A stretch of DNA of 64,000 bases from NCBI RefSeq assembly GCF_057098645.1, contig NZ_CM169472.1, one strand, 5' to 3'. Shown piece by piece: positions 26,401 through 35,400 of the stretch (within the stretch, counting starts at the first letter, position 1; every line of letters begins with the position of its first letter). The position numbers are program-made.

Positions 26401-29400
26401 TTCCAGCGTGATGATGCTGTTTTGTATCGGTATTGCGCTTATTTTTGGCTGGCGCTTAATGCGCGATGTAACCGGTCCGATTCGCAACATGGTGAATACC
26501 GTCGACCGCATCCGTCGCGGGCAACTCGACAGCCGGGTGGAAGGATTTATGCTCGGCGAGCTGGATATGCTGAAAAACGGTATCAACTCGATGGCAATGT
26601 CGCTGGCTGCTTATCACGAAGAGATGCAGCACAATATCGACCAGGCGACGTCCGATCTGCGTGAAACGCTGGAGCAGATGGAAATTCAGAACGTTGAGTT
26701 GGATCTGGCGAAAAAGCGCGCCCAGGAAGCGGCGCGTATTAAATCCGAGTTTCTGGCAAATATGTCACACGAGCTGCGTACACCACTGAATGGTGTTATT
26801 GGCTTTACCCGCCTGACGCTGAAAACAGAATTAACACCAACGCAGCGCGATCACCTGAATACGATTGAACGTTCGGCAAATAATTTGCTGGCAATTATTA
26901 ATGATGTTCTCGACTTCTCGAAACTGGAAGCAGGTAAGCTGATTCTGGAAAGTATTCCATTCCCACTACGCAGCACGCTGGATGAAGTCGTTACTCTGCT
27001 GGCACATTCTTCTCACGATAAAGGGTTGGAACTGACGCTCAATATTAAAAGCGACGTGCCTGATAACGTGATCGGCGACCCACTGCGATTACAGCAAATC
27101 ATCACTAACCTGGTGGGGAATGCAATTAAATTCACCGAGAATGGCAACATTGATATTCTGGTAGAAAAACGTGCGCTGAGTAATACCAAAGTGCAGATTG
27201 AAGTGCAGATTCGGGATACCGGCATTGGTATTCCTGAACGCGATCAATCGCGCTTATTCCAGGCCTTCCGACAGGCTGATGCCAGTATTTCCCGCCGTCA
27301 TGGTGGCACCGGGCTGGGGCTGGTGATTACACAAAAACTGGTTAATGAAATGGGCGGCGATATTTCGTTCCATAGCCAGCCGAATCGCGGTTCAACTTTC
27401 TGGTTCCACATTAATCTCGATCTGAACCCGAACATTATTATTGAAGGGCCATCCACCCAGTGCCTCGCCGGTAAGCGCCTGGCCTATGTCGAACCAAACT
27501 CCGCAGCAGCGCAATGCACGCTGGATATTTTAAGTGAAACGCCGCTGGAAGTGGTTTATAGCCCAACGTTCTCCGCGCTGCCTCCCGCGCATTACGACAT
27601 GATGTTGTTAGGCATCGCGGTGACCTTCCGCGAGCCGCTAACAATGCAACATGAGCGATTAGCGAAAGCGGTATCGATGACCGATTTCCTGATGCTGGCA
27701 CTTCCTTGCCATGCACAAGTCAATGCTGAAAAACTTAAGCAAGATGGTATCGGCGCGTGTCTGCTGAAACCATTAACACCTACGCGCCTGTTGCCTGCCC
27801 TGACGGAATTTTGTCATCACAAACAAAACACGCTTTTGCCTGTAACCGATGAAAGTAAGCTGGCAATGACAGTCATGGCGGTTGATGACAACCCCGCTAA
27901 CCTGAAACTTATCGGCGCATTGCTGGAAGATATGGTGCAACATGTGGAACTTTGCGATAGCGGGCATCAGGCGGTTGAACGGGCGAAACAGATGCCGTTC
28001 GATTTGATCTTAATGGATATTCAAATGCCGGACATGGACGGCATTCGGGCCTGCGAACTCATCCACCAGCTCCCCCATCAGCAACAAACGCCGGTTATCG
28101 CGGTAACGGCGCATGCAATGGCCGGGCAAAAAGAGAAGCTGCTTGGCGCAGGGATGAGTGATTATCTGGCGAAACCGATTGAAGAAGAGCGATTGCATAA
28201 TTTGCTGTTGCGCTACAAGCCTGGCAGCGGTATTTCCTCTCGCGTCGTGACGCCCGAAGTCAACGAAATTGTGGTGAACCCGAATGCGACCCTCGACTGG
28301 CAACTGGCACTACGCCAGGCAGCAGGAAAAACCGATCTGGCGCGCGATATGCTGCAAATGTTACTCGATTTCCTGCCTGAAGTTCGCAACAAAGTTGAGG
28401 AACAGCTGGTTGGAGAAAACCCGGAAGGCCTGGTTGATTTGATTCATAAACTGCATGGCAGTTGCGGCTATAGCGGTGTGCCGCGTATGAAGAATCTCTG
28501 CCAACTGATCGAACAACAGTTACGTAGCGGTACTAAAGAAGAAGATTTGGAGCCGGAGCTGCTGGAACTGTTGGACGAGATGGATAATGTCGCGCGCGAA
28601 GCCAGCAAAATTCTCGGGTAATGGACGTCTTGTCGAGTAGCAATCGGCTTTTTATGAAGCTGGTTTCAGATTGGTGAAAAAGTGCCTGTGTTTATGCCGG
28701 ATGCGGCGTTAACGCCTTATCCGGCCTACAAAACCAATTAAATTCAATGAATTAAAAAATGATGTAGACCTGATACATAGCACAACAGGCTATTTTGCGT
28801 TTAGCATCAGTCTCAAACCGGCTCCAGATAGAGCCGGTTTTGGTTTTCTGTCTTAACGCACCATGCACGGGCGCTTGTTATCGAACGTCCAGCCAGGAAT
28901 CAGATACTGCATTCCCATCGCATCGTCACGCGCGCCAAGCCCGTGTTTCTGATACAGCTCATGGGCTTTCATCACTTGATCCATATCGATTTCTACACCC
29001 AGCCCCGGTTTTTCTGGCACCTGTACCAGCCCGCCTTTGATCTCAAACGGTTCTTTGGTCAGGCGCTGATTACCTTCCTGCCAGATCCAGTGCGTATCAA
29101 TAGCAGTAATTTTACCCGGTGCAGCGGCGGCAACATGGGTAAACATCGCCAGGGAAATATCGAAGTGGTTGTTAGAGTGTGAACCCCAGGTCAGGCCAAA
29201 TTCATGGCACATTTGCGCCACACGTACCGAACCTTGCATTGTCCAGAAATGCGGATCCGCCAGCGGGATATCAACGGATTGTAACGAGAGCGTATGGCCC
29301 ATCTGCCGCCAGTCGGTGGCGATCATATTGGTTGCGGTTGGTAGACCGGTCGCGCGACGGAACTCTGCCATCACTTCACGCCCGGAGAAACCTTGCTCCG

Positions 29401-32400: not shown

Positions 32401-35400
32401 TAATCGGCGCGAAGATCACCGTTGCGAAGTATTGAGCGGAGTTAAAAATCGACACCGCCGTTCCCCTTTCCTGCGCCGGAAACCAGGCCGCAACAATGCG
32501 ACTGTTGCCGGGGAAAGATGGCGCTTCAGCAAGCCCGACCAGGAAGCGCAGAGTAAACAGGGCAACGATAATGCCGAATCCACTAAAGATATCGACGAAG
32601 CCTTGCAGCAAGGTAAACATCGACCAGATAAAGATCGACCAGAAGTAGACGCGTTTTGAACCAAAACGATCCAGCAACCAACCACCAGGGATCTGCCCGA
32701 TAACATAAGCCCATGAGAAGGCAGAGAACACATAGCCCATTCCCACGGGATCAAGGCCGATATCTTTGGCCATTTCCGAACCGGCAATAGAAAGCGTAGC
32801 GCGGTCGCCGTAGTTGAAGGATGTGACGATAAACAACATCACCACTATCCAGTAACGAGCATTCGTGCGTTTTTCCACACGGCTCGCAGCCTGACTTAAA
32901 GAACTCATTGTTGCACTCCTGAAAATTCGCGTTAGCCACGCTCACTCTGGACTGCGACATCGCCAGGAAATCAGAGGTGACGTAGGGTGTTTTTTGCCGT
33001 TTTTATAGGTCGTTCGCCGAATACGGCGCGTGTTTATATCTGGCAATAGCAGTATAAAAAGCGCGCCATAGCGGCTCACCGTGCAACAACACAACATTAA
33101 TGCGTTCAATGAGGCCCGATTTTGGCATTAGCCCTGGACGGTGGAATCCACTTCACGGAAATGAAAACAAGAACAAGAAAGGAAGGGTTAAAACGAAGAA
33201 ATAAAGAAGAGTATGAAATGGATCGCTTGACTCCAGGCAAACGCCAGTAAAAATCCGCGCTATGAAGCAGTTTTTACTGGCATTTGCCTGAAAAGATTCG
33301 ATTCAGCACCGCTAAAACGACATTTACCGCTCGCTGAACATATCAGGACAACAGCGTGCCCCACTGTTCGACCCACGGATTTGATTCCGTTTCCGGTTCC
33401 GGGTTCTCACTGGCGTCAATCAACAGCATTTCGCCAACCCGCTGAGCGCTCTGTTCCTGCAACAAGGCATCGAACTGTTTGCCGCCATTGCAGAAATTTA
33501 CATAACTGCTGTCGCCGAGCGCAATCACGCCATAACGCAGATTCGGCTGGAAGCCCAGACTATCTTTGATTCCCTGAAAGAGCGGCACAATGCTATCAGG
33601 AAGGTCGCCCTGCCCGGTCGTGGACGTAACCACCAGAACATACTTATCCTGATAGGGCAGCCAGTCGCTTAATTCAGGATCTTCAAATACCGTTGCTTTG
33701 TGGCCCTGTGTGGTCAGAATTGCTTCTGCTTCTTCCGCCACTAACAGCGAATTTCCGTACATGGTGCCGACAAAAATACCAATTTCCGCCATACCGTTTT
33801 CTCCCTGGATTAGGAACTTATCTCTCCATCCTGACCCGATGGCGCACTGAACTCAACCCTTTCATTTTCAGGAAGCAGACCGCGCCAGCCAAATTGTGAT
33901 AACGCCTGCATCCAGGTGTCGTCCAGGCCCGCGTGAATAGTCAGCGGCTCGCCAGTAAAAGGATGCGTCAATGACAACTGACTGGCATGCAGCATTAACC
34001 GCTGAAGACCAAAATGCTCAGCACCGCTGCGATTCTGGCGTAAATCGCCATGTTTGCTATCGCCAATAATCGGATGACGCAAATGGGCAAGATGTCGGCG
34101 AAGCTGATGTTTGCGTCCGGTTTTCGGCTCCAGTTCCACCAGGCCGTAGCGCGTGGTCGGGTAACGTCCGGTCGCTACCGGCATTTCTACGGTCGCCAGA
34201 CCGCGATAATGCGTCACTGCTGGCTGCGGGCCTTTATCTTCGCGGGCAAATTTATCAGCGATTTTGTCCAGTTCTTCCACCAGTGGATAATCCAGCACCG
34301 CTTCTTCCATCAACCAGCCGCGCACAATCGCATGGTAACGTTTCTGGATTTGGTGCTGTTCAAACTGTTGTGCCAGCAGCCGTCCGGCCTCGCTGGATAA
34401 TCCCATCAACAACACACCAGAAGTTGGTCGGTCCAGACGATGAGCAGTAAAAACATGCTGTCCTATCTGGTCACGCACGGTTTGCATGACCACTACTTTC
34501 TCGTCGCGATCCAGCCAGCTGCGGTGAACCAGCCAGCCGGAGGGTTTATTTACCGCAACCAGCCATTCATCCTGATAGAGTATTTCCAGCATTAGCTCGC
34601 ATCATCCGCAAAAAGAGCATCCAGTTTTTCCAACTCAGCCAGAATAAGCGCGCGTTGCGGATGGTCCGTCGCCAGCGCCATTTCATAATAGGGTGCAACA
34701 GCAAAAGCGCCCGGTAACGGCTGGTTGTTATTTAACAAATCGTGCATTCGCGGGATCAGCACCCACTGCAACCACTCCAGTGGTTCCATGGTGTCCATAA
34801 AGAACGGTTGGGTACTATTAAATTGATGCGGCTGGGGTTCATCGTTTCGCCAGTGCTGATGTTCACGCAGTAACGCTTCAAGCGCCTGCAACTGGAGACG
34901 AACGCGGTCATGAGTGGTCATAAAGCAACCTCAATAAGAAAAACTGCCGCGAAGGATAGCAGGAATAAAAAAAGGGAGCACTGTATTCACAGTGCTCCCG
35001 GTTCGTTTCGCAGCATTCCAGCTACTTTTATTGCTCCCTGCTCATCCTTGACAACTTTTCCTCTGGCCTTGCGGCCAATCGTTCATCCTGAACTATTGCT
35101 TCCTGCTCACACCACCCCGATGTGATACTTCATCCTGAAGTGTCCCTGGCCTTCCTGACCCACCGAATCATCCTGACCGGTTCTCATTCTCCATCCTGGA
35201 GGTGTCCTTTAACGCGTCCTGCGTCATCCTCTTCGCTTCATCCAGAAGCCTTTCCCTGAAACACCATCCTGGTGTGTCCTGCAGAAGTGTCATCATCCTG
35301 ATGTTCACTTCGTTGTCTGACTCCCTGTCGACGAAGATAGAATCGTCTTTTTCGCGAAGTCTTACAAGGCGCTTACAGACAATGCCTTAAGGAAAATTTC

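Follow-up and report, generated by a model that had tools for sequence, protein, structure and literature searches.

GudX, a lid-diverged paralog of D-glucarate dehydratase in the Escherichia coli gudP-gudX-gudD operon, and its possible role as a subunit of mixed GudX-GudD tetramers

Background

The D-glucarate dehydratase of Escherichia coli (GlucD or GudD; EC 4.2.1.40; PDB: 1EC7-1ECQ) shares its operon with a second enolase-superfamily protein, variously termed GudX, GlucDRP, YgcY or b2788, whose gene lies between that of the transporter GudP and gudD itself. Here we report an analysis of this paralog in a stretch of 64,000 nucleotides of an E. coli chromosome (RefSeq assembly GCF_057098645.1, contig NZ_CM169472.1), which we refer to as the window and whose positions are counted from its first letter. 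GudX is a long-known orphan paralog of glucarate dehydratase, and its presence here will not surprise a specialist; the question of its role is likewise old and well known. A first-pass annotation of the window had described this role as unassigned, which agrees with our searches, as no functional or substrate assignment for GudX/GlucDRP (gudX, ygcY, b2788) was found by full-text searches or in current annotation. The UniProt entry for GudX reportedly records a strongly impaired activity and states the real substrate as unknown.

Proteins of the enolase superfamily bind Mg2+ through three ligands at the ends of barrel strands 3, 4 and 5, and their 20s and 100s loops close over the substrate and set specificity. 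In the glucarate dehydratase subgroup, strand 2 ends in a KxK motif and strands 7 and 6 carry a His-Asp dyad, these being the two general bases; the third metal ligand is an Asn.

Structures of GlucDRP were released in 2012-2013. One of these, 4IL0, is titled GlucDRP from E. coli K-12 and shows the protein alone. The other, 4GYP (released 2012), is titled 'heterotetrameric complex of GlucD and GlucDRP from E. coli K-12 MG1655', and phmmer searches recover both the GlucD and the GlucDRP sequences from this entry, with GlucDRP as chains C/D. This heterotetramer, which was absent from the first-pass annotation, is the most concrete clue to the role of GudX. A related protein from another order, that of Actinobacillus succinogenes (PDB: 3N6H/3N6J/3PFR), was deposited as a 'mandelate racemase/muconate lactonizing protein' with no function stated.

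The interpretation that we tentatively favor, and regard as a serious possibility, is that GudX, catalytically equipped and with a diverged lid, serves in hexarate catabolism as a subunit of tetramers that it forms with GudD. Below we set out the conservation, divergence and phyletic patterns that bear on this proposal, and weigh it against other explanations.

Results and discussion

Identity of GudX and its relationship to GudD

The segment at 28853-32908 of the window, on the minus strand, is the entire gudP-gudX-gudD operon. The first-pass annotation had entered the whole of this span under gudX; the operon is real, but gudX proper takes up only 30214-31554 of it. The three genes are:

31556..32908, minus strand: gudP, first gene of the operon, encoding an MFS glucarate/galactarate/glycerate transporter of 450 amino acids (open reading frame; RefSeq annotation of a 99.9% identical record)
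30214..31554, minus strand: gudX (GlucDRP), encoding an enolase-superfamily paralog of GudD of 446 amino acids (open reading frame; homology)
28853..30193, minus strand: gudD, encoding D-glucarate dehydratase of 446 amino acids (open reading frame; TIGR03247; RefSeq annotation; close to the K-12 GlucD sequence of PDB 1ec7)

The gudP product matches Pfam MFS_1 and scores 538.6 bits against TIGR00893. For gudD we use the ATG start of the RefSeq annotation, the mechanical list of open reading frames extending the gene to a TTG at 30217. The segment is matched in 5423 of 5426 complete E. coli genomes, where it is annotated gudP/gudX/gudD, and is 99.9% identical to O145:H28 strains. The protein is the same as K-12 GlucDRP and occupies the same chromosomal place between gudP and gudD, the window carrying an O145:H28-type allele (96-99% DNA identity to most E. 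coli) whose product is about 98% identical to that of the common E. coli allele and shows allelic differences only. A synonymous divergence (dS) of about 0.4 from an 'E. coli' locus of our survey (L028) raised the possibility that the window allele was divergent or horizontally acquired. This was rejected, as 28.5 kb of the window show 98.8% identity to K-12 without a local break, and hence L028 itself is the divergent lineage.

GudX and GudD align over their full length with 280 of 448 positions identical (63%) and 78% positives (BLASTP, 586 bits). This bears out the earlier description of two clear paralogs of 446 residues encoded back to back, with 20 nt between them; the two peptides quoted in its support are also present exactly, one in GudD and the other in GudX. 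At the DNA level the pair is visible as a 300-nt direct repeat of 75% identity with a spacing of 1364 nt.

GudX is a member of the enolase superfamily, with an N-terminal capping domain and a C-terminal modified TIM barrel (Pfam MR_MLE_N, 35.5 bits; MR_MLE_C, 173 bits). It matches the GlucDRP chains of 4IL0 and 4GYP over its full length (phmmer, about 1034 bits). An AlphaFold model of the window protein (pLDDT 85.6, falling below 50 at residues 95-103) superimposes on enolase-superfamily structures with TM scores of 0.92-0.97, including 0.97 to 4gyp_D (Foldseek). GudX is as long as GlucD and folds alike (TM about 0.95); the two also have the metal ligands, KxK motif, His-Asp dyad, ligand-contact residues and operon in common. 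The NCBI curated equivalog model for glucarate dehydratase, TIGR03247, separates the two: at a cutoff of 828.7 bits it accepts GudD (896.9) and excludes GudX (742.8), which is why RefSeq names the latter an 'enolase C-terminal domain-like protein' or 'glucarate dehydratase-related protein'. The A. succinogenes protein is an ortholog of GudX (785.7 bits, 71-74% identity), GudD-type structures being more distant (about 640-650 bits); its closeness fits the presence of Pasteurellaceae such as Cricetibacter (L034) among the X-type sequences described below.

Several database proteins of 583-690 residues (P0001-P0005, P0009 and P0011) score as GudX over part of their length only; they probably stem from gudX-gudD read-through or fusion calls, or from frameshifts in the assemblies.

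The catalytic residues of GudX are retained

We compared 41 core GudX orthologs with 78 GudD-type sequences. Residues are given in GudD numbering unless stated otherwise, GudX numbers being typically one lower (K205/K207 of GudD correspond to K204/K206 of GudX). Sixteen catalytic, metal-binding or substrate-contacting residues, namely N27, H32, T103, Y150, K205, K207, D235, N237, E260, N289, D313, H339, N341, D366, H368 and R422, are invariant in 41 of 41 GudX and in all 78 GudD-type sequences. Six further positions were tallied in the 41 GudX proteins: F104, F152, E266 and S340 are invariant, D105 is fixed as Glu, and R107 is replaced by Lys in two. As 211 of the 446 columns (47%) are invariant among the 41 GudX sequences (213 in 40 co-resident GudD sequences), the probability of finding 20 of 20 named positions invariant by chance is about 2e-7.

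In GudX numbering, the Mg2+ ligands D234, E259 and N288 are present in the window protein and invariant in the 41 orthologs, as are the subgroup marks K204-L-K206, the H338-D312 dyad and N288. Most of this set falls in one part of the gene:

30454..30945, minus strand: barrel-domain catalytic set of GudX (K204, K206, D234, N236, E259, N288, D312, H338, N340, D365, H367), intact by clade comparison; the same stretch holds the fixed differences N293, A321 and C337

The alignment of catalytic residues that the first-pass annotation had proposed as a check thus finds general bases, metal ligands and substrate contacts kept in the 41 orthologs. With all catalytic residues invariant, GudX is not a decayed enzyme, and the pattern supports the view that it still needs its active site. 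Degeneration into a pseudoenzyme by residue loss was rejected as a candidate, no catalytic or metal-binding residue having been lost in the window protein or in any of the 41 orthologs.

Divergence of GudX is focused on the lid

Fixed differences were defined as positions at least 90% conserved within each clade and differing between the X and D clades. Seventeen such positions separate GudX from GudD, comprising a two-residue insertion (G89-N90 of GudX) and the substitutions L28I, S29G, P34A, G78A, R88H, Q102W, D105E, I110V, H111N, T114A, Q140K, D294N, S322A, S338C and G418P; in addition to these, GudX lacks two residues after R108. Residues 1-135, the N-terminal capping domain, hold 12 of the 17 (binomial p = 7e-4), grouped in the 20s and 100s loops on either side of the conserved contacts N27/H32 and T103/F104:

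31456..31476, minus strand: 20s lid loop, gudX codons 27-33 (IGGAHNA), with L28I, S29G and P34A around the conserved N26 and H31 (clade comparison)
31216..31296, minus strand: 100s lid, gudX codons 87-113, with R88H, the GN insertion, Q102W, D105E, the deletion after R108, I110V, H111N and T114A (clade comparison)

The window GudX carries the full group signature 'IGAAHGNWEVNAKNACP', which in its own numbering reads I27, G28, A33, H87, the G89-N90 insertion, W103, E106, V109, N110, A113, K139, N293, A321, C337 and P417. Two of these positions recur in deposited structures: according to the titles retrieved by Foldseek, PDB 3PWG and 3PWI are product complexes of the GlucD mutants S29G.P34A and P34A, respectively. 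These titles show that the depositors were probing the same GudX-versus-GudD question, and we infer from them that S29G and P34A by themselves still allowed GlucD to form product.

Phyletic distribution and origin of gudX

Loci were surveyed in one genome per species with GudX as the query; the best 80 of at least 597 matches were re-annotated by tblastn with GudX, GudD and GudP. Among these 80, 44 loci contain a gene nearer to GudX than to GudD. In 39 of the 44, gudD follows on the same strand, about 15-60 nt downstream, and gudP usually lies upstream; in one further locus, from Acerihabitans, gudD is upstream of gudX on the opposite strand. X-type genes occur in Enterobacteriaceae, Erwiniaceae, Pectobacteriaceae, Yersiniaceae, Budviciaceae, Orbaceae and Pasteurellaceae, along with Paludibacterium, Halomonas and one metagenome-assembled genome. 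The remaining loci, among them those of Pseudomonas, Bradyrhizobium, Variovorax, Bacillus and Paenibacillus, carry one gene of GudD type each, with a product 70-77% identical to E. coli GudD and 63-65% to GudX.

In a neighbor-joining tree the 44 X-type sequences, including the window GudX, form one clade on a long stem. Its monophyly was recovered in 97 of 100 bootstraps on a 51-sequence subset; all trees were built by neighbor-joining, and the exact rooting is beyond what this method alone can give. Tajima relative-rate comparisons count 70-81 unique changes in GudX against 30-37 in GudD (p between 1e-3 and 1e-6 for four of the six outgroups). A single X clade on a long stem together with an accelerated GudX branch indicates that the duplication was old and single, and that GudX then went through a burst of change. 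The idea that gene conversion continues between the two genes as a general process was rejected, the X and D clades being cleanly separated and only rare deletion chimeras being found.

Some loci lie off the main pattern. Halomonas eurihalina (L041:4866-10522) has a basal X-type gene alone between kdgD and the tripartite transporter genes tctC-tctB-tctA, with a partial GudX signature in which P34, G78 and S338 are still D-like. The kdgD gene encodes 5-dehydro-4-deoxyglucarate dehydratase, and this neighborhood suggests that early X-type enzymes made the usual keto-deoxy-glucarate product. Lucifera butyrica (L058:3139-7323) has an independent tandem pair of the same layout, in which a gene for a GudP-like transporter is followed by a divergent copy (4581-5951) and then by a canonical gudD (6001-7323). 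In the divergent copy the 100s lid is enlarged by 17 inserted residues and GudD positions 102, 105, 110 and 111 are changed, the same lid positions as are altered in GudX, and it groups with the X clade in only one of 100 bootstraps.

Selection, retention and natural recombinants

Ratios of nonsynonymous to synonymous divergence (omega, Nei-Gojobori) against Citrobacter, Enterobacter and similar relatives are 0.019-0.05 for GudX and 0.016-0.05 for GudD, and dN(X)/dN(D) has a median of 1.23 in 39 genome pairs; since dS is near or above 1 for most pairs and saturated for distant ones, these ratios are rough. Within that limit GudX is under purifying selection as strong as that on GudD, in keeping with the earlier statement that an intact second copy has been retained. 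Loss is rare: gudX is covered to at least 80% in 5408 of 5426 complete E. coli genomes, leaving 18 below this threshold, and gudX-specific DNA is absent from eight.

One of these eight genomes was inspected. In isolate 38I23CPO002 (NZ_CM148361.1, L083:3752-5089) recombination with gudD near codon 15 has removed gudX, so that gudP is followed by a gene for 445 residues, annotated 'glucarate dehydratase', that joins the first ~14 codons of gudX to the body of gudD. A second recombinant occurs in Pantoea stewartii subsp. stewartii CCUG 26359 (L032:6001-7338), where a single intact gudX/gudD chimera lies between gudP and garL-garR-garK. Its first ~290 residues are X-type and include both lid loops, and the remainder is 94-98% identical to Pantoea GudD. 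The crossover is inside the ATNMIAT stretch common to both paralogs, which corresponds to the following segment of the window:

30679..30771, minus strand: longest near-identical stretch of gudX and gudD (sequence comparison), holding the crossover of the P. stewartii chimera

This chimera is a natural domain-swap experiment, and the two recombinants show that unequal recombination between the tandem copies happens and that gudX can, rarely, be lost.

Genetic data from other organisms were considered and set aside. In Dickeya solani, transposon sequencing identified gudP, gudX, gudD and garL as fitness genes on galactarate, in an operon of the form gudP-gudX-gudD-garL-garR-garK with garD separate (PMC10202176). 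Dickeya and P. stewartii have the dehydratase genes in one long operon with garL-garR-garK beside barA, and in E. coli the gar genes are elsewhere. In organisms with such a long gud-gar operon, transposon phenotypes of gudX are confounded by polarity; the galactarate phenotype was rejected as evidence on GudX, as polarity on garL explains it. In Salmonella Paratyphi A, ygcY decays along with gudT and gudD, and the Typhi/Paratyphi data are uninformative on GudX, gudD having been complemented without ygcY (PMC11077982).

A mixed GudX-GudD tetramer and its alternatives

The proposal of a mixed tetramer follows from the joint expression of gudX and gudD and the crystallization of a GlucD-GlucDRP heterotetramer. 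It may be outlined as follows: 1) gudX arose by an ancient tandem duplication of a glucarate dehydratase and has been kept beside gudD since. 2) It would be co-transcribed with gudP and gudD, its translation starting 1 nt past the gudP stop codon. 3) As the complete enolase machinery and all glucarate contacts are kept, GudX most likely still binds a C6 diacid sugar and performs Mg2+-assisted abstraction of the alpha-proton. 4) An early and then permanent change affected the mobile lid, formed by the 20s and 100s loops closing over the distal half of the substrate, along with a few second-shell barrel positions (D294N, S322A, S338C and G418P). 5) The retuned site could give the mixed tetramer a substrate or kinetic property missing from GudD homotetramers, and the product would enter the same 5-keto-4-deoxyglucarate -> GarL route. 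The identity of GudX, its synteny, selection, intact catalytic residues and lid-focused divergence are shown by the data above, as is the existence of a heteromer structure; a physiological role of this heteromer, and turnover of a hexarate by GudX within it, we infer. As with paralog heteromers in general, we are dealing with co-expressed tandem duplicates of a homotetrameric enzyme with a crystallized mixed tetramer. The GudX-GudD heteromer itself might be obligate, beneficial or incidental.

Several observations weigh against this proposal. Paralogs derived from a homotetramer often cross-assemble without functional meaning, and a single crystal structure is no proof of a physiological heteromer. 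In Paludibacterium the genes run garK-gudP-gudX, GudX bears the full signature, and gudD is missing from the surrounding 6 kb; also, the few E. coli that lost gudX by recombination evidently survive. Hubbard et al., who are said to have named GlucDRP in 1998, reportedly found the purified protein strongly impaired in both dehydration and epimerization of D-glucarate and L-idarate. To our knowledge no substrate of GlucDRP has been published since 1998 despite the work of the Enzyme Function Initiative, a point that also weakens any simple idea of another acid sugar. Finally, the roles given above to individual residues (ligands, general bases, contacts) are those that we take to have been established by Gulick et al. 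(2000/2001) on the GlucD structures; their sole corroboration here is that all these residue numbers land on the expected residue types in the window GudD and agree with the PDB mutant names N341D/L, S29G and P34A.

A stricter version of the tetramer proposal, which we consider unlikely, makes GudX an obligate heteromer subunit that is nearly inactive as a homotetramer, and whose intact active site becomes competent, or which modifies GudD, only in a GudX2-GudD2 tetramer. Here the diverged lid of GudX would be ordered against its GudD partner, and GudX may change the affinity or specificity of GudD or its partition between epimerization and dehydration. If true, this would be a mode of function by paralog heteromers that is new to descriptions of the enolase superfamily, and it would account for the failure of substrate assignment over 25 years.

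It is similarly unlikely, in our assessment, that GudX acts on its own as the dehydratase or epimerase of another acid sugar, with the heteromer incidental and the lid re-specifying the distal end of the substrate. Candidate substrates would be another hexarate giving 5-keto-4-deoxy-D-glucarate (L-talarate, galactarate) or a modified or lactonized diacid. Invariant catalytic residues combined with fixed changes in specificity-determining lid loops are what such an enzyme would display, and an accelerated stem followed by strict conservation is the classic pattern of neofunctionalization; the exclusion of GudX from the NCBI equivalog model and the X-type genes without an adjacent gudD in Paludibacterium and in Halomonas (by kdgD and tctCBA) point the same way. 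However, every residue in direct contact with glucarate is unchanged, gudX is almost never found apart from gudD, and in Enterobacterales it has no transporter or regulator of its own. The papers searched likewise yield no substrate, and we know of none that emerged for GudX when the group behind the structures screened its acid-sugar library.

That GudX is a weak, redundant glucarate dehydratase, kept for dosage or by riding in a selected operon, is improbable. It has the fold, ligand contacts and operon of GudD, a residual activity on glucarate and idarate was reportedly observed in 1998, and the E. coli lineages that lost gudX by recombination keep gudD. Yet hitch-hiking does not protect a coding sequence: as GudX has an omega of about 0.03 and, in a span that takes in Enterobacterales, Pasteurellaceae and Orbaceae, 211 invariant columns, equal to GudD on both counts, neutral carriage in a selected operon cannot explain gudX. 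Moreover, the 90-100% fixation of its 17 clade-specific residues indicates selection for the diverged state, and loss remains confined to the few genomes counted above.

Least probable, and indeed very doubtful, is a non-catalytic pseudoenzyme that serves as a structural or regulatory partner or ligand sensor tuning the stability or activity of GudD, for although a heterotetramer structure exists and the intrinsic activity is reportedly low, pseudoenzymes normally lose their acid/base residues and K204/K206, H338-D312, N340 and D365 of GudX are invariant in 41 of 41 orthologs. In favor of such a role, the X-type protein of A. succinogenes is reported to have been crystallized with intact D-glucarate (3PFR), an entry whose sequence is the same as that of 3n6h by phmmer.

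Junctions, regulatory regions and neighboring features

The remaining features of the operon and its flanks are:

31552..31558, minus strand: gudP stop codon (TAA), one base, and the gudX ATG (direct sequence reading: ...ggggcaaTAAgATGacg)
30194..30213, minus strand: gudX-gudD spacer of 20 nt with an AAGGA Shine-Dalgarno sequence 7 nt before the gudD ATG (direct reading: TGAttctgaaaaaggacataaatATG)
28815..28840, no strand assigned: GC-rich palindromic hairpin with a 10-bp stem, 13 nt past the gudD stop codon, between the convergent barA and gudD (consensus scan and sequence)
32909..33342, minus strand: intergenic region of 434 nt upstream of gudP, with a presumed CdaR-dependent promoter (position)

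At the gudP/gudX junction direct reading finds no strong Shine-Dalgarno sequence, and the tight spacing suggests that gudX may be translationally coupled to gudP. Counts of terminator-like and promoter consensus matches in the region do not exceed those in shuffled controls, and regulatory elements were hence assigned by position alone; on this basis the hairpin at 28815..28840 is likely a terminator. The consensus scan found no strong sigma-70 match on the minus (coding) strand of the 434-nt region upstream of gudP, which fits dependence on an activator. In Salmonella the gudTYD promoter is under CdaR control (PMC11077982).

The convergent barA-gudD intergenic region also contains a REP-like palindrome (TATGCCGGATGCGGCGTTAACGCCTTATCCGGCCTA) at 28693-28728. 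On the other side of the operon, an imperfect inverted repeat at 33219-33305, with arms of 35 nt that are 77% complementary and a loop of 17 nt, lies just past the end of yqcA, some 310 nt upstream of gudP, and may serve as the terminator of yqcA or as a regulatory site for gudP. Further along, the small RNA CsrB (Rfam RF00018, 383 bits) is encoded at 34964-35323 on the minus strand, between yqcC and syd. The barA gene is 6 kb from CsrB, across the gud operon. BarA controls csrB expression.

Conclusions

Among the 'orphan' enzymes of E. coli K-12, GudX is comparatively well studied, and its gene belongs to the core, with more than 99.6% of complete genomes carrying it. The present comparison narrows the targets for its presumed functional difference from GudD to two lid segments (residues 27-33 and 87-113) and four barrel positions, and the natural gudX/gudD chimeras and gudX-less E. 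coli isolates are ready-made test strains. The gud pathway aids the expansion of Salmonella and E. coli in the antibiotic-treated or inflamed gut, and assigning a role to GudX would close a small gap in the metabolic map of E. coli. If the idea of a mixed tetramer is true, GudX and GudD would cleanly illustrate how a homo-oligomeric enzyme can be retained after duplication.

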